64,000 nucleotides of DNA from Candidatus Niyogibacteria bacterium (GTDB lineage Bacteria; Patescibacteriota; Minisyncoccia; JACROR01): the NCBI GenBank assembly GCA_016186495.1, contig JACPLO010000001.1, positions 11,907-75,906 of the forward strand. Direction: 5' to 3'. The stretch's first letter is position 1. Every line of letters starts with the position of its first letter. The notes below the pieces were generated by a model. The model was given only the letters and a program-made list of their open reading frames with translations, did not search any database and was not told the DNA's origin. Positions 127-41,166 of the stretch are shown here, in pieces. The translations under genes were made by a program, and so were the position numbers.

Positions 127-254
127 ATATATGAATCCCGTTAGAAATCGTGGACGCATAATTATAATATATAATGCCGATAAAACATTAAAATTTATAA
201 GTAATATCGTAGAACGCGCAGCGCTTTTAGTGTCCGCGTCCTATTTCTAATGGG

Positions 255-2669
255 ATGAAACAATACAATCATAAAGCAATAGAAAAAAAATGGCGCGAGA
301 AATGGCAAAAAAACGGGCTTTATAGAACCGAAGAGAATTTTAAAAAATCCAAAAGTTATGTTTTGGATATGTTTCCTTATCCTTCGGGCGAAGGACTTCA
401 TGTGGGGCATCCGAAGGGGTATATCGCGACTGATATTTATTCGCGCTGCCAAAAAATGAAAGGCAAAAATATCTTGCGGCCAATGGGGTGGGACGCGTTC
501 GGGCTGCCGGCGGAAAACTACGCTCTTGAACACAAGATTCATCCTAAAGCGGCGGTGGATAAAAACATAAAAAGATTTAAAAAACAGCTGTCTCTTTTAG
601 GCTTTAATTATGATTGGTCGCGCGAGATTAACACCACGGATCCGGATTATTACAAATGGACCCAGTGGATTTTTCTAAAACTTTTTGAAAAAGGATTGGC
701 TTACGAGTCAAATGAGCCGATTAATTGGTGTCCGTCGTGCCTGACCGGCTTGGCTAATGAGGATTTGGAAGGAAATGTTTGCGAGCGGTGCGGCAGCGCG
801 GTGGAAAAAAAACCTCTGCGGCAGTGGATGTTAAAAATCACCGATTACGCGGAGCGTTTATTGGAAGATTTGGAAGAACTAAATTGGCCGGAATCCATTA
901 AAGAATCGCAGAGGAATTGGATCGGAAAAAGTCAGGGAGCGGAAATAGATTTTGGCGTTGTCGGGAATAATGAAAAAATAACAGTTTTTACCACGCGTCC
1001 CGACACGCTTTTTGGCGCTACTTATTGCGTGCTTTCTCCGGAACACAAAATAATTAAAAATTTAAAATTTAAAATTAAAAATTACAGTGAGATCAATGAA
1101 TACATTGAAAAAGCGGCGGCTAAATCCGAAATTGAACGAATTGCCGAGGATAAAGAAAAAACCGGCGTGGAATTAAAGGGGATTAAGGCGATTAATCCGG
1201 CGAATAACGAAGAATTGCCGGTTTTCATCGCGGATTACGTGCTGATTCATTACGGTACGGGCGCGATTATGGCCGTGCCGGCGCATGATGAACGGGATTG
1301 GCAATTTGCCAAGAAATTCAATTTGCCGATTAAACAGGTAATCTGCCAGTTTTATCCGGAACCTAAATGTCCGGTTCTGGATAACGCTTATCTCGGCGGG
1401 GGAAAGCTGGTGCAATCCGGAAAGTTTAATGGAATGGATTCTGAAAAAGCAAAAAAAGAAATCACCAAGTTTGTCAACGGAAAAATTGCCGTTAAATATA
1501 AATTGCGCGATTGGGTATTTTCCCGCCAGCGTTATTGGGGCGAACCGATTCCGATTATCCATTGCGAAAAATGCGGGGCCGTGGCGGTGCCGGAAAAAGA
1601 TTTGCCGGTGAAGTTGCCTAAAGTCAAACATTATGAGCCGACAGGCACGGGAGAATCGCCGTTGGCGGGGATAAAAAATTGGATGAAAACAAAGTGCCCG
1701 AAGTGCGGCGGAAAAGGAAAAAGGGAAACCAACACGATGCCGCAATGGGCGGGCTCGTCCTGGTATTATCTTCGTTATCTTGATCCGAAGAATGATCAGG
1801 CGCTTGTTGACAAGAAAAAAGAAAAATATTGGTCGCCGGTTGACGTGTACGCGGGCGGAGCGGAGCACGCGACGCGCCATTTGATTTACGCGCGTTTTTG
1901 GCATAAATTTCTCTATGACCTCGGGGCGGTGAATTATTCCGAACCTTTTAAGCGCCTTCAAAACGTGGGATTGATTATTGCCGAAGACGGCCGAAAAATG
2001 AGCAAACGTTACGGTAATATCATTAATCCCGACGATATCGTGGAAGTTTACGGCGCCGACACTTTACGGATTTATGAAATGTTTATGGGGCAGTTTGATC
2101 AGGCGGCCAACTGGAACACCGAAAGCATTATCGGGGCAAGAAGATTTTTGGAAAAGATTTGGCGATTAGCGGAAAAAATCGGGAAGCCGGAACCGCGGAT
2201 TAAGAACAAAAGAATTGAATATTTAATTAATCAAACCATTAAGAAAGTCGGCGAGGATATTGAAGAATTTAAATTTAACACCGCGATCGCTCAAATGATG
2301 ATTTTATTAAATGAGCTGGAAAAAAGCGGAACAACGCCGAAAAATGTTTTTGAGCCGTTTCTTAAAATTCTCGCGCCGTTCGCGCCGCATCTTAGCGAAG
2401 AACTCTGGGAAAAAATGGGAAACAAAACTTCGGTTCATTCGGCAAAATGGCCGGAGTACGATCCAAAAATGATTAAGGAAAAAATTTTTGAATTGGTGAT
2501 TCAAATAAACGGCAAAGTGCGGGCAAAAATGGAAGCGCCGGTTGAAGCGAGCAAAACCGAACTTCAAGAGCTGGCGCTCAATCATCCCGTTATAAAAGAA
2601 AAATTAGCCGCCACCGCGCCTAAAAAAATAATCGTCGTCCCCGGCCGCTTGGTAAATGTGGTTGTTTAA
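255..2669 (+). CDS. leuS: leucyl-tRNA synthetase
   Basis: 804 aa; class I aaRS HIGH motif (PSGEGLHVGHPKGY), KMSKS (KMSKR), LeuRS editing/CP1 and anticodon-binding regions recognisable. Confidence 0.95.
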   Translation: MKQYNHKAIEKKWREKWQKNGLYRTEENFKKSKSYVLDMFPYPSGEGLHVGHPKGYIATDIYSRCQKMKGKNILRPMGWDAFGLPAENYALEHKIHPKAAVDKNIKRFKKQLSLLGFNYDWSREINTTDPDYYKWTQWIFLKLFEKGLAYESNEPINWCPSCLTGLANEDLEGNVCERCGSAVEKKPLRQWMLKITDYAERLLEDLEELNWPESIKESQRNWIGKSQGAEIDFGVVGNNEKITVFTTRPDTLFGATYCVLSPEHKIIKNLKFKIKNYSEINEYIEKAAAKSEIERIAEDKEKTGVELKGIKAINPANNEELPVFIADYVLIHYGTGAIMAVPAHDERDWQFAKKFNLPIKQVICQFYPEPKCPVLDNAYLGGGKLVQSGKFNGMDSEKAKKEITKFVNGKIAVKYKLRDWVFSRQRYWGEPIPIIHCEKCGAVAVPEKDLPVKLPKVKHYEPTGTGESPLAGIKNWMKTKCPKCGGKGKRETNTMPQWAGSSWYYLRYLDPKNDQALVDKKKEKYWSPVDVYAGGAEHATRHLIYARFWHKFLYDLGAVNYSEPFKRLQNVGLIIAEDGRKMSKRYGNIINPDDIVEVYGADTLRIYEMFMGQFDQAANWNTESIIGARRFLEKIWRLAEKIGKPEPRIKNKRIEYLINQTIKKVGEDIEEFKFNTAIAQMMILLNELEKSGTTPKNVFEPFLKILAPFAPHLSEELWEKMGNKTSVHSAKWPEYDPKMIKEKIFELVIQINGKVRAKMEAPVEASKTELQELALNHPVIKEKLAATAPKKIIVVPGRLVNVVV

Positions 2670-16851: not shown

Positions 16852-18636
16852 TCAAACTTCAATAATCACGGGCAGCACCATCGGCCGTTTTTCGGTTTGG
16901 GTGAACAAAAATTTTCCGAGCCGTTCTTTCAAGACTTCCTTCACATAATCCCAATTTATAGGATGGATATTGGAAGCGGTTTCTTCAATGATTTTCAGAG
17001 TCAATTGGCGCGTGTGATAAAGAAGTTTTCTGGATTCCCGGAGATAAATGAAGCCGCGCGAAATAATATCGGGTGAACCTTTTACTTTTCCGTTCTGGCT
17101 GTCCACCACCGCGATAATGACAAAAATGCCGTCCTGGGCCAGAGCTTGGCGGTCTCTTAGGACCACTTCCTGCATGTCGCCCACGCCCAAACCATCCACC
17201 ATTACGTAGTTGGCGGGCACATATTCTTTGGTTAGTTGAACTTTGTTTTTTGAGGCCTCAACAATTTGTCCGTTGTCCGAAACGATAATTTGATCTTCTT
17301 TTAAGCCGGCTTGGCGGCCGATTTTTGCGTGAATTTTTAAGAAAGAATGATTTCCTTCAATCGGCATCAGGTAGCGGGGCTTGATCATTTGAATCATTTC
17401 TTTTAAGTCTTCCTGCTTGGCGTGGCCGCCCGCGTGAATGTCCAGCATCCGGTAGTTGATTACTTCGGCGCCGTCGCGATAAAGTTTATCGGTCAGATGC
17501 TGGACCGAACGTTCGTTTCCGGGAACGACCGACGATGAAAATACCACCGTGTCGGTCGGCTGGATCCGCAGATATTTGTGCCTTTTATTCACGATTCTCA
17601 TTAAAACGGCATTGTCTTCCCCTTGGGCGCCGGTGGCTAAAATTATAATTTTATGAGGCGGGTAATTGGCCGCGGCGCTTATCGGAATAACGGTTTTTTT
17701 ATCAAATTTCATGTAGCCGAGTTGGGTGGCAATTTCAATATTTGTTTTCATGGAGTAGCCCTCAATGATGATTTTTTTATCGTGTTTTTCCGCGATTTGA
17801 ATAATTTCATTAAGCCGGCCCAAAAGAGAAGCAAACGTTCCGATGATCAATCGGCCGGTGGCGTTTTTAATTATTGATTCTATTTCCAGAGTAATTTCTT
17901 TTTCACTGAATTGATGTCCCGCGGATGAAGCGTTAGTGCTGTCAGCCATCAAAAGAAGAACATTTTTTTCGCCGAGGGCTTTGATTTTTTCAATTTCTGT
18001 TTTACCGGCGATATCTGATTTAAGATCCAGTTTAAAATCGCCGGTGTGAATCAAAATGCCGACTGGCGTATTGATGATTATTCCCACGGAAGCGGGGATG
18101 TTATGCGAAATGCCGAAAAATTCCAGCTGAAAAGGGCCGGCTTTGACTTTTTTTTCGGTATTTATTTCTTTAAGGTTAAGAGGCGTGGCGGGTTTGTAGT
18201 CAGTCTGCCTTTTTTTTATGATCGCCAGAGTAAGATCCGTGCCAAGAATCGGGATATTCCGGCCAAGTTTAGGCATTAAATGGGGGATTCCTCCGATGTG
18301 GTCGAAGTGGGCGTGAGTAATGATAATACCCTTGATTTTTTCCCGTTTAGGAATCAGGGAAGAAACATTAGGGATGATATAGTCAATGCCCGGCATATTT
18401 TCTTCTGGAAATTGAAGACCCATGTCAATGATAATAATGTCTCCGTGCTGGGGCGAGCCGGGATTATGGTATTCCAAATACATCATATTGCGGCCGACCT
18501 CCTCTAATCCTCCCAAAGGCACAATTTTAATATGCTCATTTTTTTGGCCGACTATTTTTTGCGCGTGGCGAAAAACCGTTCGCCGGGGACGGGAAGGAGA
18601 AACAGCTCTTTCTCTGTATTTTTTTGTCATAATCAT
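16852..18636 (-). CDS. rnj: ribonuclease J (metallo-beta-lactamase/beta-CASP)
   Basis: 594 aa; HxHxDH motif IITHAHFDHIGG, beta-CASP and C-terminal domain. Confidence 0.9.
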   Translation of the reverse strand: MIMTKKYRERAVSPSRPRRTVFRHAQKIVGQKNEHIKIVPLGGLEEVGRNMMYLEYHNPGSPQHGDIIIIDMGLQFPEENMPGIDYIIPNVSSLIPKREKIKGIIITHAHFDHIGGIPHLMPKLGRNIPILGTDLTLAIIKKRQTDYKPATPLNLKEINTEKKVKAGPFQLEFFGISHNIPASVGIIINTPVGILIHTGDFKLDLKSDIAGKTEIEKIKALGEKNVLLLMADSTNASSAGHQFSEKEITLEIESIIKNATGRLIIGTFASLLGRLNEIIQIAEKHDKKIIIEGYSMKTNIEIATQLGYMKFDKKTVIPISAAANYPPHKIIILATGAQGEDNAVLMRIVNKRHKYLRIQPTDTVVFSSSVVPGNERSVQHLTDKLYRDGAEVINYRMLDIHAGGHAKQEDLKEMIQMIKPRYLMPIEGNHSFLKIHAKIGRQAGLKEDQIIVSDNGQIVEASKNKVQLTKEYVPANYVMVDGLGVGDMQEVVLRDRQALAQDGIFVIIAVVDSQNGKVKGSPDIISRGFIYLRESRKLLYHTRQLTLKIIEETASNIHPINWDYVKEVLKERLGKFLFTQTEKRPMVLPVIIEV

Positions 18637-18690
18637 AATGCTGGGAGGGAGATTTGAACTCCCACTCTCTCGCGAGAACTAGCTCCCTTG

Positions 18691-18799
18691 TCCCGTTAGA
18701 AGTGTCGGAGATGGGATTTGAACCCATACAGTCTTGCGACTACTAGCTCCTGAAGCTAGCGCGTCTGCCAATTCCGCCACTCCGACACTTCTAACGGGA
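18691..18799. repeat. palindromic element copy (13-bp perfect TIRs TCCCGTTAGAAGT / ACTTCTAACGGGA) whose cargo is the tRNA-Leu(CAG) gene
   Basis: Inverted repeats abut both ends of the tRNA acceptor stem; same CCCGTTAGAA core as repeats at 24261, 27370, 40571 and variant at 20556. Confidence 0.7.
18704..18786 (-). tRNA. tRNA-Leu (anticodon CAG)
   Basis: 83 nt read by eye: GTCGGAG TG GCG GAATTGGCAGA CGC G CTAGC TTCAGGA GCTAG [var arm TAGTCGCAAGACTGT] ATGGG TTCAAAT CCCAT CTCCGAC, discriminator A; no encoded CCA. Confidence 0.85.
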
Positions 18800-18849
18800 T
18801 GAACTAGCGCGTCTGCCAATTCCGCCATCCCAGCTTTTTCAACCGGAGA

Positions 18850-20553
18850 TTAATCCGTTAAAAATTTCCATACTTTTTTGGTATCAATATACCATTCATT
18901 TACTTGAGTAAAGCGATCTGAAGGAACGGTAATGTGGGAAATATCCATACCTTTTAAACGTTCAGGGAGAATGTATAAATAGTGCGGCGCATAAAGGAAG
19001 ATTGCCGGAATATCTTTTTGGACTTCTTTTTGGAAAGCGACGTAGTTTTTAGCGCGTTTTGCCGGATCGGCGATACTTCTCGCTTTCTCTAAAAGATCAT
19101 CCGCAGTGATGTTGGCATAAAGGGCGATATTTAAACCCGGATCGTTCCTTTGGGAAGAATGCCAGAAAGCGAACGGATCAGGATCAAATCCTGTTATTTC
19201 TCCGAAAAGAAGAGCATCGTAGTCCCGCGGCCGGATAATATTTTTTTCAAAATCGCCAATTTCAAATATTTTAACATCAGTTTTCACGCCGATGTCTTCC
19301 CACATTGTTTTTAAAAGTTCCGCGGTTTTGACCAATTCCGGCGCCATTGAAGTAGACAAAGAAAGGGTCAGAAGGATTGTTTCTTTTTTAATTTTCTTTT
19401 CCATTATTCCCGATTTTTCGTTTAATTTCCATCCTGATTTTTCAATCAGGATTTTGGCTTGTTCCGGGTCATAATCGTTGTTATTTTCTTCTTTGATAGA
19501 ACCAAGCGTGTCCGGCGGAATAGGATGGTCAATGGCCGATCCGTAACCGGCCAACGCTTCTTCAATAATTTTTCTTTTATCAACGGCCAGTTTCAGGATT
19601 TTTCTGACTGCGGCATCGGCCAGGATTTTATTCTTATTTTGATTTAAAAAAACGCCAAAAACGCGGGAAAGAGTCATTGTTTGAAGCCGGGATTCTTTTC
19701 TAAGAATAGCCGATATTTTTTGGGAAGAAACCGCTCCAATGCTGTCAATAATCCGATTTTCATAAGCCGCCAAGAGATCAGCTTCCGAGTTGTAGAATTT
19801 AAAAATTATCTTTTTTAAATAAGGTTTTTTTAAGGCGTAATCTTCAAAAGATTCCAAAGTGTAAGAATTGATGATTCCCGATGAATTCCGTGATATTTTT
19901 TTAACGCGGTAGGGGCCGGCGCCGATCGGTTCAATGTTAAATTGGCTTAAACTGATTTGTTCGGGCTTAAGGTCGGCCCATAAATGGTAAGGAAGGATTT
20001 CCAAAGTAGTATTTTCCAGAAACGGAGCGTAGGGTTTTTTGAGAATGAATTTAACGGCGCGGGAATTAATAATTTTCGTTTCCACTCCCTCCCAATTAGC
20101 TCTTTTCGGGCTTTTAGTAAAAGGATCTTGAGCAAGTTTGACGGTAAAAATAATATCTTGAGCGGTAATCGGCTGGCCGTCTGACCAGCGCAAATTTTCT
20201 TTCAGAAAAAAAGTATAAGTAAGATTGTCTTCGCTGATTTCATATTTTTCCGCTAATTCCGATTTTAATCCGCCTTGGCCGTCTGATTTTAAAAGGCCGG
20301 CGTAGATAAGTTCAGTCAGATCGTGGTCTGCTTCGGAGACGGCGATCAAAGGATTGATAAAACGAGGAAAACCGATGACTCCTTCGTAAAGGACGCCGCC
20401 GTCAACCGGCGTTTCAACGGCGATTCGGTCATTGATAATCATTGAAAGGCCGATTATTCCCGTAAAAAACAGCAAGGCGAAAAACGCAAAAGCGGCTTTT
20501 TCTTTGATATTCAGCGTGCGGATAATAAAGCGGATTTTGGTAAAAGACGGCAA
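18850..20553 (-). CDS. ABC transporter substrate-binding protein, family 5 (peptide/nickel type), orphan
   Basis: SBP_bac_5-like sequence; N-terminal signal anchor; ORF extends to 20670 but probable start is TTG at 20553 preceded by GGGG SD, leaving the tandem repeats in the 5' leader. Confidence 0.7.
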   Translation of the reverse strand: MPSFTKIRFIIRTLNIKEKAAFAFFALLFFTGIIGLSMIINDRIAVETPVDGGVLYEGVIGFPRFINPLIAVSEADHDLTELIYAGLLKSDGQGGLKSELAEKYEISEDNLTYTFFLKENLRWSDGQPITAQDIIFTVKLAQDPFTKSPKRANWEGVETKIINSRAVKFILKKPYAPFLENTTLEILPYHLWADLKPEQISLSQFNIEPIGAGPYRVKKISRNSSGIINSYTLESFEDYALKKPYLKKIIFKFYNSEADLLAAYENRIIDSIGAVSSQKISAILRKESRLQTMTLSRVFGVFLNQNKNKILADAAVRKILKLAVDKRKIIEEALAGYGSAIDHPIPPDTLGSIKEENNNDYDPEQAKILIEKSGWKLNEKSGIMEKKIKKETILLTLSLSTSMAPELVKTAELLKTMWEDIGVKTDVKIFEIGDFEKNIIRPRDYDALLFGEITGFDPDPFAFWHSSQRNDPGLNIALYANITADDLLEKARSIADPAKRAKNYVAFQKEVQKDIPAIFLYAPHYLYILPERLKGMDISHITVPSDRFTQVNEWYIDTKKVWKFLTD

Positions 20554-27308: not shown

Positions 27309-27369
27309 ATAATTTAATCTCTTTCTCTTTTTATTTTTTTCTGTTATCATTGCTCTTAAGTTTGAATTT

Positions 27370-27449
27370 ACCCCGTTAGAAAGTTATTTTTAAACTATAT
27401 GAATAAGATTTATTTCTGGATGTTTACGAAGCGAGCTTTCTAACGGGGT
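27370..27449. repeat. intergenic palindromic element copy (14-bp TIRs ACCCCGTTAGAAAG / CTTTCTAACGGGGT, 52-bp core)
   Basis: Perfect inverted repeats with the CCCGTTAGAA core. Confidence 0.75.
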
Positions 27450-27491
27450 TTAGAACATTAATAATCTTTTTATTATAAATAAGGAGGCAGG

Positions 27492-39103: not shown

Positions 39104-39400
39104 ATGTTTGGTTTTGATATAAATTTTTGGCTTATCTTGGGCTTTTTTGGGCAATTCCTGTTTTTTATGAGATTTTTTGTCCAATGGATCGCTTCCGAAA
39201 AAAGAAGGGAAAGTTTTTTCCCGGTTGCTTTTTGGTATTTTAGCATCGGCGGCGGCGTTATTCTTTTAATTTACGCCGTGTCCATTAAAGATCCGGTTTT
39301 TATTTTAGGGCAGGGCGCCGGATTGTTAATTTACATCAGAAATTTAGTTTTGATTCGGAAAAAAAATATTTTAAATAAATCTCACGCTCCGCAAATATGA
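39104..39400 (+). CDS. lipid-A-disaccharide synthase N-terminal (LAB_N) domain membrane protein
   Basis: 98 aa, 3 TM; RFFVQWIASEK...FWYFSIGGGVILLIYAVSIKDPVFILGQGAGLLIYIRNL matches LAB_N pattern as recalled. Confidence 0.5.
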   Translation: MFGFDINFWLILGFFGQFLFFMRFFVQWIASEKRRESFFPVAFWYFSIGGGVILLIYAVSIKDPVFILGQGAGLLIYIRNLVLIRKKNILNKSHAPQI

Positions 39401-41166
39401 ATTTATTAAGTTTAAAAAACATATTTAGCGCGGATTTTTTGGAGAAATACGGCCTAGTTTTTATTCTCGCGCTTTTTGTCGCGTTTGGCATAGTCGGAAT
39501 TTTTTATAATTATTCAATTTCCAATACGATTGGCGAAGAGTCTATTTTGATGGCGGCCACCTTAAAAATGATCGCCGAATTATCATTAAGGCCGAATTAT
39601 CCGACTATGTATCATATGCCGTTCGGGACATATTTTTATTTGCCGTTTTTTATTGTTTTGCTTGTTTTTTTAAGGCTTTCCGGCTTATTTGCCAGCTTAG
39701 AGGAATTGAAAGTTTTTGGAATAACAGATTATGAAAAATTATTGCCGATGGCAAGATTTATTTCAATATTTTTAGGAGTAGCCTCGGTATATATGGTTTA
39801 TAGAATTTGTGAAAAATTATTCAATAATAAATTTATTTCTCTAGTCGCTTCATTTTTGCTTGCCACCAATCTAATATTCGTGCAGATGTCCCATTTCGGC
39901 AAAGTTTGGATTATCCAGATATTTATTGTTCTGTTAACTTTTTATTTTATTGTTGCTTTATATCAAAAAGAACGGCCCGGATTTAAGGATTATTTTTATC
40001 CCGCGCTTTTGACGGCAATTTCTTTCGGCGTCCATTTTATCGGCATATTGATTTATCTGCCATTTTTAACGGCGCATTATTTGAAAAATAAAGAAAAGAA
40101 ATTTAGGGAGATTTTTATAACAAACAGGAATTTTTGGCTCTCTAATTTAGTGATCGCGATTATATTATTGTTTATTTTTTATTTAAACCCTTATGGATTT
40201 GCCAATTACGGCCTGCGATCCGTGGCGGCGGCCGCGGCTATTATTCAGGAGAGCGCCGGCGCCAGCGGCGGTTATGATTTTTGGTTAATGTTCAGCAATT
40301 ACGGAAAAGTATTGTTTGAAAACGGTCCGGCTCTGACCATAATATTTGTTTTCAGTTTAATTCCCTTATTTTTGCGAAGGAGAGATTTATTTTTTATATT
40401 CAACTCTTTTATATTCGGCTACTATATTATTATAGGCCCGATCCTCGGCCCGACAATCGGAATTAACGGCCGAGGATTTTATATCTCGCCTATTATACCG
40501 TTTATGGCTGTTGTGTCCGCTTTTGGTATTTATGTGTTTTATAAAAGTGATTTATTAGGCAAAAGGATAAATCCCGTTAGAAATATTATTTCTAACGGGA
40601 TAAAGATTTTCTTACTGGCTTTGGTTTTTCTTTTTTCCGCGTACATTCCGATTTTATGGAATTATAAGCTGATTCAGCCCAGCGCCTGGATTTTGGCTAA
40701 AGATTGGATTTATAATAATCTACCGTCGGGAGTAAGCATAATCAATCTCAATACCGAGCTTCCCATTAATGAAAATAAGGAGTCTGTGGAAGATACCAGA
40801 GTTTATACGCCGAATTTTTTTACAAAAAAACAGGATTATTTGTCGTCAGTCGGCGATAATCAATATCCCAAGCCCAATTATTACGTTTTAAAGTTCGCCG
40901 ATTATAGAGAGGGTATTCCTAAGGCCGTTTTAGATAGAGGTTTTGATTATATGGTTATAGAATGGTGGGATCAGGCGAGATATGAAAAAACTATGCAAGA
41001 TGTCCGTCAACTTAATTTAGAAGAAATAAATTTAATTAAAATATTTCCGGCTGGCGCCTCTTCCACTACCTTAAATATGGATATGGAAAATATAAAGAAT
41101 CCCCTTATTAATTTGCGAAAAATAGACCATACGGGACCGGTTATCGCTATTTATAAATTAAAATAA
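39397..41166 (+). CDS. GT-C fold membrane glycosyltransferase-like protein (ArnT/PMT_2-like)
   Basis: 589 aa, >10 TM; loop motif IGEESILMAATLKMIAE; contains in-frame palindrome at 40571-40601. Confidence 0.45.
   Translation: MNLLSLKNIFSADFLEKYGLVFILALFVAFGIVGIFYNYSISNTIGEESILMAATLKMIAELSLRPNYPTMYHMPFGTYFYLPFFIVLLVFLRLSGLFASLEELKVFGITDYEKLLPMARFISIFLGVASVYMVYRICEKLFNNKFISLVASFLLATNLIFVQMSHFGKVWIIQIFIVLLTFYFIVALYQKERPGFKDYFYPALLTAISFGVHFIGILIYLPFLTAHYLKNKEKKFREIFITNRNFWLSNLVIAIILLFIFYLNPYGFANYGLRSVAAAAAIIQESAGASGGYDFWLMFSNYGKVLFENGPALTIIFVFSLIPLFLRRRDLFFIFNSFIFGYYIIIGPILGPTIGINGRGFYISPIIPFMAVVSAFGIYVFYKSDLLGKRINPVRNIISNGIKIFLLALVFLFSAYIPILWNYKLIQPSAWILAKDWIYNNLPSGVSIINLNTELPINENKESVEDTRVYTPNFFTKKQDYLSSVGDNQYPKPNYYVLKFADYREGIPKAVLDRGFDYMVIEWWDQARYEKTMQDVRQLNLEEINLIKIFPAGASSTTLNMDMENIKNPLINLRKIDHTGPVIAIYKLK
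40571..40601. repeat. 31-bp perfect palindrome ATCCCGTTAGAAATA-T-TATTTCTAACGGGAT inside CDS
   Basis: 15-bp arms with single-base centre; translated as NPVRNIISNGI; minimal member of CCCGTTAGAA family. Confidence 0.8.

Follow-up and report, generated by a model that had tools for sequence, protein, structure and literature searches.

Integrative elements that target transfer RNA (tRNA) genes carry, through their attP/attB organisation, a replacement for the part of the tRNA that they displace. Rickettsia palindromic elements (RPEs) are repeats of 100-150 bp found in both intergenic and coding regions (PMC1779305). In Patescibacteria, group I introns of ~200 nt or more have been described at position 35/36 of tRNA-Asn, tRNA-Asp and tRNA-Tyr genes; they are self-splicing, precise in vitro and associated with U35 at the splice site, and the genes that they interrupt escape standard tRNA finders (Nakagawa et al. 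2026, PMC13011429). The locus analysed here lies in a stretch of 64,000 nt of DNA from a groundwater bacterium, Candidatus Niyogibacteria (the window), and consists of a tRNA-Leu gene in two halves surrounding an intact tRNA-Leu(CAG) gene on the minus strand (18834-18639). Comparison of sequences suggests that the locus is probably an insertion allele that complements itself: tRNA-Leu(CAG) would come from the inner gene, and the outer halves would be what is left of a disrupted one. A cassette of ~114 nt (left arm, complete tRNA-Leu(CAG), right arm and CAAG) would have been inserted between positions 35 and 36 of a resident gene, the single tRNA-Leu(CAG) between the gene of an SBP_bac_5 solute-binding protein and rnj. 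The arms of this cassette would be the terminal inverted repeats of a short palindromic family scattered in the genome, similar to RPEs or to miniature inverted-repeat transposable elements (MITEs). The cell would lose nothing, the cassette carrying a working copy of the tRNA that it destroys, and the outer halves could not give a decoding tRNA.

The core of this explanation is ordinary, a disrupted gene and its replacement. What is unusual is that a palindromic element encoding no protein has a tRNA for cargo, and that strain-level polymorphism goes with horizontal spread; polymorphism, element family and cassette movement all lay beyond the view of the original prediction, made from the window alone. 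The system would work as a palindromic insertion of MITE or RPE type that also follows the principle of ‘bring your own replacement’ known from integrative elements which target tRNA genes. As with the phages, integrative and conjugative elements and archaeal viruses which use tRNA genes, the target is the anticodon loop, function is restored and tRNA pieces are duplicated as direct repeats. However, such elements span kilobases and include an integrase gene, whereas the insert here is ~114 nt long and protein-less. They also restore a hybrid gene from a host 5′ and an element 3′ part, whereas here a complete independent tRNA is present and both host halves are orphaned. Resemblance to RPEs, MITEs and repetitive extragenic palindromes (REPs) lies in short, non-coding, palindromic copies dispersed at intergenic and in-frame sites of a small reduced genome. 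Unlike these, the copies can be much shorter (29-nt minimal hairpin), show clear 4-bp direct repeats and have a variable interior, which in one copy encloses a complete, functional-looking tRNA gene. Our literature search found no RPE- or MITE-type element with tRNA cargo inside a cognate tRNA gene, which is not proof of novelty. It found no description of such an element family in Patescibacteria and nothing relevant on nested tRNA genes, Patescibacteria MITEs or the arm sequence.

Hereafter WIN denotes the allele of the window, and L- and P-numbers the loci and proteins compared with it. The outer 5′ half comprises, in order, the acceptor strand GCTGGGA, U8/G9, the D-arm, G26 and the anticodon-stem 5′ strand CTAG. 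The 3′ half opens with GGAGCTAG (G36 G37 A38 and the anticodon-stem 3′ strand GCTAG), and continues with a 15-nt variable arm, the T-arm GGGAG-TTCAAAT-CTCCC, TCCCAGC and the discriminator A (18639). The original prediction had taken the two halves for one gene, and rightly so: they match the uninterrupted tRNA-Leu(CAG) of locus L030 at 75 of 76 comparable positions. Two details had to be amended: the outer discriminator is not at 18640 but at 18639, and the 5′ half holds more than the start of an anticodon stem, this strand being whole except for the missing C31, with CUAGU pairing with GCUAG via one U.G pair. The insert follows A35, i.e. lies at position 35/36 of the outer gene, measures 110-114 nt and is made up of a tRNA and two 13-nt arms, without any open reading frame (ORF). 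The expected lengthening of the inner acceptor stem by perfect 13-bp repeats is found as a 20-nt, 100% complementary inverted repeat (18691-18710 / 18780-18799), that is, the arms plus the 7-bp acceptor stem. On either side of the insert stand two tetranucleotides which also border element arms elsewhere, TTCA on the 5′ side in L001, L031 and L041, CAAG on the 3′ side in L041 and L035.

The inner gene, announced as an intact tRNA-Leu(CAG), is recognised as such by ARAGORN, and by the Rfam tRNA model with 57.5 bits against a gathering score of 29. It has the conserved D- and T-loop residues, a 7-nt anticodon loop with U33, the long variable arm and the A73 expected for Leu; CCA is not encoded. 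Among the inner genes of WIN, L023 and L002, compensatory changes occur in the variable-arm and T stems. In the predicted fold of the 195-nt RNA spanning the locus, the outer acceptor and T arm lead into an 8-bp helix of anticodon type; beyond an internal loop of 1 nt / 5 nt follows the 20-bp helix, which bears the inner cloverleaf. With a minimum free energy of -96.3 kcal/mol (z = -7.1), this fold is equalled by none of 200 shuffled sequences. The same fold is predicted for the L023 allele. Coordinates are collected in Table 1.

Table 1. Parts of the nested tRNA locus and further copies of the palindromic element in the window
Feature	Positions	Strand	Remarks
Outer tRNA-Leu, 5′ half	18804..18834	-	Matches positions 1-30 of the uninterrupted tRNA-Leu(CAG) in L030, L026 and L001
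TTCA, positions 32-35 of the outer anticodon loop	18800..18803	-	From comparison of filled and empty alleles
Left inverted-repeat arm, TCCCGTTAGAAGT	18787..18799	-	Directly adjoins the inner tRNA 5′ end
Inner intact tRNA-Leu(CAG)	18703..18786	-	84 nt including discriminator A73; ARAGORN; Rfam RF00005
Right inverted-repeat arm, ACTTCTAACGGGA	18691..18703	-	First base (18703) is the inner discriminator A
CAAG (CAAA in L023)	18687..18690	-	Missing from empty alleles; no copy of TTCA
Outer tRNA-Leu, 3′ half	18639..18686	-	One position different from the L030 tRNA
Second element copy	132..259	+	Arms 136-148 and 243-255 (one mismatch); ~94-nt AT-rich interior; TGAA at 132-135 and 256-259
Third element copy	27367..27452	+	Arms CCCCGTTAGAAAG / CTTTCTAACGGGG (27371-27383, 27436-27448); 52-nt interior; TTTA repeats
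Fourth element copy	40568..40604	+	Minimal 29-nt perfect hairpin; arms 40572-40585 and 40587-40600; TAAA repeats

Disruption by a tRNA-carrying palindromic element, the possibility toward which the original prediction leaned, gains its support from a dispersed element family (see below) and from the orthologous locus in relatives, a comparison which it had suggested and in which the outer gene was indeed found uninterrupted. The most direct case is L026. Its rnj DNA is 100% identical to that of the filled loci L023-L025, with the same RNase J protein, and its flanks over 4.7 kb are otherwise identical to L024 and L025, with one further single-nucleotide difference from L023. Yet its outer gene is a normal, uninterrupted tRNA-Leu(CAG), reading GCTGGGA...CTAGCTTCAGGAGCTAG...TCCCAGCA. 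The tRNA site is thus polymorphic for presence and absence of the insert, filled in L023-L025 and empty in L026, between identical flanks. Apart from this, the A-run before the tRNA differs by two bases in length between L023 and L026. The closest relative of the window, L030 (94.6% rnj DNA identity), also has the outer gene as an ordinary uninterrupted tRNA-Leu(CAG), and so do L001, L031 and L032. Empty alleles read ...GCGCTAGC TTCA GGAGCTAG... and filled ones ...GCGCTAG TTCA (arm-tRNA-arm) CAAG/CAAA GGAGCTAG..., i.e. a filled allele equals an empty allele plus cassette and four bases, minus C31. In a second clade (~72% rnj DNA identity), the inner tRNA of L002, L004 and L005 is followed by the remains of a GGGCAGG-type gene, and L020-L022 carry an uninterrupted GGGCAGG-type tRNA-Leu(CAG), the empty version of the L004/L005 outer gene.

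Six loci came from a metagenome scan for RNase J relatives: L008 is nested, L009, L011, L012 and L013 have a single uninterrupted tRNA-Leu(CAG), and L010 ends short of the tRNA site. Among species-representative genomes, which do not include that of the window, a scan with AACGGGACAAGGGAGCTAG matched the L002 contig alone, and the junction is therefore rare. In a viral collection, 16-mer junction matches (L014, L015) were due to chance and without tRNA, and matches with 75-105 nt spacing (L045, L046, G+C fraction 0.62) were unrelated hairpins. Two further peculiarities of empty alleles deserve mention. In L030 (1380-1415) the leader of the uninterrupted tRNA holds a tandem duplication, GATTAATCTCCGGTCGAA twice. 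L001 and L028/L013 have rnj DNA 95.7% identical, but their tRNA-Leu(CAG) differs at 23 of 82 positions and their leaders differ; the locus seems to swap its tRNA between lineages even without nesting.

The nested structure is not a misassembly, as the original prediction had considered: it recurs in independent assemblies and in sequence variants. Six Logan contigs encode exactly the RNase J protein of the window. The same 195 nt recur in the Logan contig L016 (SRR4343430), and the 3′ junction is found in L017-L019 from three other runs. Variants of the nested architecture (L008, L023-L025, L027 and L002, the latter the same as L007) were assembled independently in JGI, ENA and NCBI data, from different samples, with different assemblers and in different projects. 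A chimera of two tRNA-Leu genes would have to draw on the 24-31 nt direct repeats (D-arm), which do break de Bruijn contigs here, L017-L019 and L027 each beginning in the inner tRNA. The chance that it explains the locus is nevertheless negligible, given the full identical structure in L016, its sequence variants in L008, L023-L025 and L002, and four further contigs that hold the 3′ junction. As an aside, short-read contigs of several projects (L017, L018, L019, L027, L004) stop inside the inner tRNA at the duplicated D-arm, and nested alleles of this kind will often be split or lost in metagenome assemblies.

Could the inner tRNA be an intron? In this scenario, also raised in the original prediction, excision of the inner tRNA with the helix would allow the outer exons to be ligated as another functional tRNA-Leu. 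The perfect complementarity of the outer acceptor halves and the insertion at 35/36, the site that group I introns prefer in tRNAs of Patescibacteria (PMC13011429), speak for it. However, all joins were enumerated in three alleles and none gives a canonical anticodon arm (5-bp stem, 7-nt loop, U33); the sole join that yields CAG needs a 4-bp stem and a 15-nt arm. The outer gene (18834-18639) thus has no usable anticodon arm, either as it stands or after any join, in line with the earlier failure to derive a 7-nt loop by simple splicing. ARAGORN with intron modes and lowered thresholds reported from the 280-nt region the inner tRNA and a spurious reverse-strand call (ps70), and Rfam at E ≤ 1 the inner gene and not the outer one. 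Running ARAGORN on 650 artificial joins was uninformative, good acceptor, D and T arms giving calls for nearly anything, and the explicit stem and loop test was used instead.

Neither known class of intron fits. Like the Patescibacteria group I introns (PMC13011429), the insert occurs in the same phylum, at 35/36 and in a gene missed by standard finders, but it is a tRNA plus helix of 110-114 nt, too short for the catalytic core of a group I intron (P3-P9, usually 200 nt or more). The Rfam model Intron_gpI does not match it, whether the threshold is the gathering score or E ≤ 1, and its 5′ exon ends in A35, not in U. Split, permuted and multi-intron tRNAs of Archaea likewise have halves joined by a long helix near the anticodon stem and are hidden from simple finders. 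Here, by contrast, the host is bacterial, the halves cannot yield a mature anticodon arm, what separates them is itself a tRNA of that isoacceptor, and uninterrupted alleles coexist in the population. Moreover, neither sequence nor fold contains a bulge-helix-bulge motif, the helices being separated by a 1/5-nt internal loop instead of 3-nt bulges around a 4-bp helix. Since filled and empty alleles each encode exactly one tRNA-Leu(CAG), of the same isoacceptor, splicing gains nothing. The outer gene has also decayed in other, older lineages. All this makes a true tRNA intron very improbable. Nor does the locus resemble an integrase-type integration, with no ORF in the insert and SBP_bac_5 and RNase J genes as neighbours.

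The history that we propose for the insertion allele is that filled and empty forms segregate on identical backgrounds, that the cassette has moved between Niyogibacteria lineages and that the outer halves decay with age. The WIN and L023 outer halves each differ at one of 76 positions from the empty tRNA of their own lineage, 4-fold degenerate sites differing by 17-26%. The one change of L023 creates a C.A mismatch in the variable-arm stem, absent from its empty counterpart L026. In L002, on the other hand, the outer acceptor halves are unpaired and G18 is lost, and GC-rich hairpins have been inserted in its D-arm and T-loop, in the T-loop of L004 and L005 (a double hairpin), and in the acceptor stem of L004. 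Outer halves nearly intact in WIN and L023 and decayed in L002, L004 and L005 are the pattern expected if a disrupted gene decays with time. These secondary insertions have features of their own. The T-loop double hairpin is homologous between L002 (2700-2960) and L004/L005 (60-190 and 1-50), with compensatory changes. A CCTGCC-N4-GGCAGG hairpin is found in either orientation in the outer remnants and resembles the acceptor-stem sequence of that tRNA. L004 and L005, with the same RNase J protein, are one GC-rich palindromic insertion apart.

As to movement, inner tRNAs differ at 6/84 positions between WIN and L023, 8/84 between L023 and L002 and 12/84 between WIN and L002, whereas the resident tRNAs of these hosts differ at 32/82, with rnj DNA 72% identical. 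WIN and L002 share GCGCTAGTTCATCCC and CTAACGGGACAAGGGAGCTAG as identical junction strings. Between hosts, inner tRNAs thus vary far less than resident ones and do not follow host phylogeny, and the cassette therefore moves horizontally. The uninterrupted tRNAs of the outer type in L030, L026 and L001 differ at only 0-1 of 84 positions, and therefore the inner genes of WIN and L023 are more diverged than a tRNA inherited vertically at this locus would be.

The arms (TCCCGTTAGAAAT) form the termini of palindromic elements of a dispersed family, which has three further copies in the window. Family pairs follow the pattern (T/C)CCCGTTAGAA...TTCTAACGGG(A/G). The 13-mer arm motif has 7 matches in the window at ≤2 mismatches against 0.92 expected, a number reached by none of 100 shuffles; together with one arm pair from a relaxed search, these matches form four inverted pairs with the core CCCGTTAGAA in the 64 kb. 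Three of the four are flanked by identical 4-nt direct repeats (TGAA, TAAA, TTTA), for which the chance is about 1e-7. The arms vary between copies (T/C at the tip; GAAAT, GAAAG, GAAGT or AAAAT) and are complementary within each copy. As in MITEs, terminal inverted repeats are shared by dispersed copies, and presence/absence polymorphism is seen at two sites, that of the tRNA and that of a GT39 glycosyltransferase gene.

This last site carries the fourth and smallest copy. It adds 33 nt in frame, encoding INPVRNIISNG, to a GT39/PMT_2 glycosyltransferase ORF (39397-41166, 589 aa, Pfam), and is thus, as with RPEs, a palindromic repeat in a protein-coding gene whose ORF is preserved. The identical protein is present in an NCBI metagenome-assembled genome (MAG). 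The 11 residues are absent from 5 of 10 homologues (P0130, the closest, P0133, P0134, P0137 and P0139), and in silico deletion of the 29-nt hairpin with one TAAA gives K-R-I-K-I, the exact sequence of P0130. P0131 and P0132 have at the same place an 11-residue insert of similar pattern, possibly an older copy. The third copy is intergenic, between a second PMT_2 gene and an NAD-dependent epimerase gene; its arm tips are unlike those of the other copies yet perfectly complementary. The second copy is 120 nt long (123 nt for the span 136-258 with its flanking base), and its interior holds TATAAT-like strings. The ATG (255-257) of the downstream ORF, leuS encoding LeuRS, is formed by the last A of its arm and the TG of the TGAA repeat. 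An IMG/VR copy, L038, is similarly placed before a radical-SAM gene (GGGA/TGAA/ACC). The idea that the second copy splits an overlapping stop/start codon pair was dropped, the upstream frame having stop codons.

Outside the window, IMG/VR contigs classed as viral (G+C fraction 0.42-0.52) contain hairpins with the CCCGTTAGAA core in L033, L035, L038, L040, L041 and L042. L038 and L042 have 14-nt arms identical to those of the window with TTCA duplications, L033 and L040 have CTCA duplications, and further IMG/VR hairpins look like ordinary terminators. L041 has the same flanks, TTCA...CAAG, as the tRNA copy, and L035 holds two copies 60 nt apart, both ending in CAAG; this recurrence suggests that the four bases belong to one element class. 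Direct repeats of 4 bp accordingly border the three further copies of the window and L038, L033 and L040, and are absent at the tRNA copy, L041 and L035. In the window no longer-range arm pair stood out, and single arm-like 9-mers are at chance level. The arm core recalls the Neisseria uptake sequence GCCGTCTGAA; a role of CCCGTTAGAA as a DNA-uptake sequence was rejected, single arms being at chance level and every real occurrence being paired. Two observations concern leaders. In L001 (2290-2316) and L031/L032 (1390-1415), the native leader of the uninterrupted tRNA is a solo family arm, TTCA + TCTCGTTAGAAATAA. In the window, the outer leader TCTCCGGTTGAAAAA (18835-18862, minus strand) and the final SBP codons AAATTTTTAACGGAT resemble degenerate arms placed back-to-back.

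How the cassette came into being may be approached from these leaders. Judging from the leader TTCA + TCTCGTTAGAAATAA of L001, L031 and L032 and from the SBP codons, the combination ‘arm + tRNA’ is old at this locus. Two arms may have captured a tRNA here, or fold-back copying may have produced the cassette on the spot, its movements beginning only afterwards. Insertion itself would rely on the transposition machinery of the family, or on short-homology recombination of an already nested allele. A bolder proposal, possible but rather doubtful in our eyes, is an actively mobile, self-complementing ‘selfish tRNA’, a protein-less palindromic element with tRNA-Leu(CAG) as its cargo, inserting site-specifically at 35/36 of the tRNA-Leu(CAG) gene of its host, independently in several Niyogibacteria lineages. 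If this were true, the resident copy would be knocked out and the element become indispensable, and the same junction, diverged cassettes and young backgrounds would be its signature.

At the opposite end, local rearrangement could have produced the nest once at this locus, DNA uptake followed by homologous or short-homology recombination being its only means of spread. Microhomology duplication, or recombination between alleles at TTCA, would have been accompanied by fold-back copying of the leader into the right arm, and the arms would resemble the family only because the native leader is an old family arm. Several facts agree with such an origin: the native leader of L001, L031 and L032 is almost the inner leader, that outside the WIN outer gene being a degenerate version; the tRNA copy has no target duplication; and the odd junction (loss of C31, CAAR) is common to all filled alleles, which suggests a single origin. 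In addition, template-switch correction, as in quasi-palindrome mutagenesis, can keep arms perfect without selection. Fold-back copying, however, predicts GGGA followed by TGAA and not CAAG. The TTCA...CAAG flanks of L041, an unrelated IMG/VR contig, and the CAAG of L035 seem to travel with the element, and the lineage-matched variable arms of WIN and L023 would require crossovers within ~15 nt. We thus hold local rearrangement to be unlikely and retain insertion of a family member carrying its own tRNA as the preferred explanation.

Several points nonetheless weigh against this explanation. The tRNA-bearing copy has no target-site duplication (TTCA against CAAG/CAAA) and lacks C31, and is therefore not a textbook transposition product. 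Neither a transposase nor an autonomous copy was found in the 64 kb and the short loci searched. Complete filled alleles number only three, and partial ones one. The WIN and L023 outer halves differ at 3/76 positions, where ~20/76 would be expected for neutral, vertical descent from the 26% divergence of 4-fold sites (P about 3e-7). Finally, two double changes, both compensatory, are all that separates the arms of WIN from those of L023 (chance ~1e-3), which could mean an RNA-level role of the helix rather than a passive repeat. Helix pairs in the arms were counted by script, since MAFFT misplaced gaps in the longer L002 arms.

The low outer difference may reflect recent arrival in each background, repeated conversion by empty alleles, or selection. 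The first two are favoured because empty alleles exist on identical or nearly identical backgrounds and the outer gene has decayed in older lineages. Selection would imply that outer halves and long helix serve a role other than decoding, as a processing platform punctuating the SBP-tRNA-rnj transcript or as a tRNA-like RNA in two pieces that accepts leucine; the anticodon is not among the features that bacterial LeuRS reads. This would agree with the 3/76 difference against 26% at 4-fold sites, with the perfectly co-varying arms, with the clean folding of outer acceptor and T arm in both alleles, and with an outer 3′ end 2 nt from the rnj ATG. On the other side, empty alleles on identical backgrounds have no need of such a role, L002, L004 and L005 have a badly damaged outer gene, the L023 variable arm has a C.A mismatch absent from L026, and recent arrival or conversion explains the conservation equally well. 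We therefore consider a selected non-decoding role quite improbable. A further step for the ‘selfish tRNA’ would be that the 20-bp helix and the preserved outer halves become used at the RNA level, in processing or as such a two-piece RNA.

Expression of the nested allele may be pictured as follows. The locus would be transcribed as one precursor, probably with its neighbours. In this precursor the inner leader is fully paired with the trailer, U-1 with A73 included. RNase P requires a free leader, and the 20-bp helix, stacked on 8 pairs, is therefore expected to be cut or to breathe first. After such opening, or cleavage by an enzyme of the RNase III type, the inner tRNA would be released by RNase P and 3′ trimming and then receive its CCA, which is not encoded. 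The outer pieces would be left as a nicked, tRNA-like by-product. No RNase III gene lies within the 64-kb window, which has no bearing on the rest of the genome. Intervening sequences of bacterial ribosomal RNA (rRNA), excised by RNase III without re-ligation, offer a parallel, with a long perfect helix in the loop of a structural RNA and a fragment-leaving cleavage such as is presumed here. Fragmented rRNA, however, is functional, whereas a cut in the anticodon loop leaves a tRNA unable to decode, and here the inserted gene takes over.

If our explanation holds, an essential single-copy tRNA gene can be invaded at no cost provided that the invader supplies a replacement. Once the outer gene has decayed, simple deletion can no longer remove the insertion, which would amount to a minimal, protein-free genetic addiction. 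It would also place in a genome of the candidate phyla radiation (CPR) a family of very short palindromic mobile elements occupying intergenic, in-frame protein-coding and RNA-gene sites. In CPR tRNA inventories, an ‘extra’ half-tRNA or a missing isoacceptor may then be an insertion allele. The filled/empty polymorphism on identical backgrounds provides a natural system to measure element movement.

The gene order around the locus, SecG, SBP_bac_5 protein, tRNA, RNase J (rnj) and TrpRS, is kept from SecG to RNase J in every related contig compared, and the closest RNase J relatives are from Candidatus Niyogibacteria and Parcubacteria MAGs. A promoter-like site, TTGACA-18-TATACT, lies upstream of secG and no strong one in the SBP-tRNA interval, and the tRNA is therefore probably co-transcribed with its neighbours. 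The SBP stop codon is separated by 15 nt from the start of the outer gene, and the end of this gene by 2 nt from the rnj ATG. With such tight packing (18634-18640 and 18835-18852, minus strand), tRNA processing would also set the 5′ end of the RNase J message.

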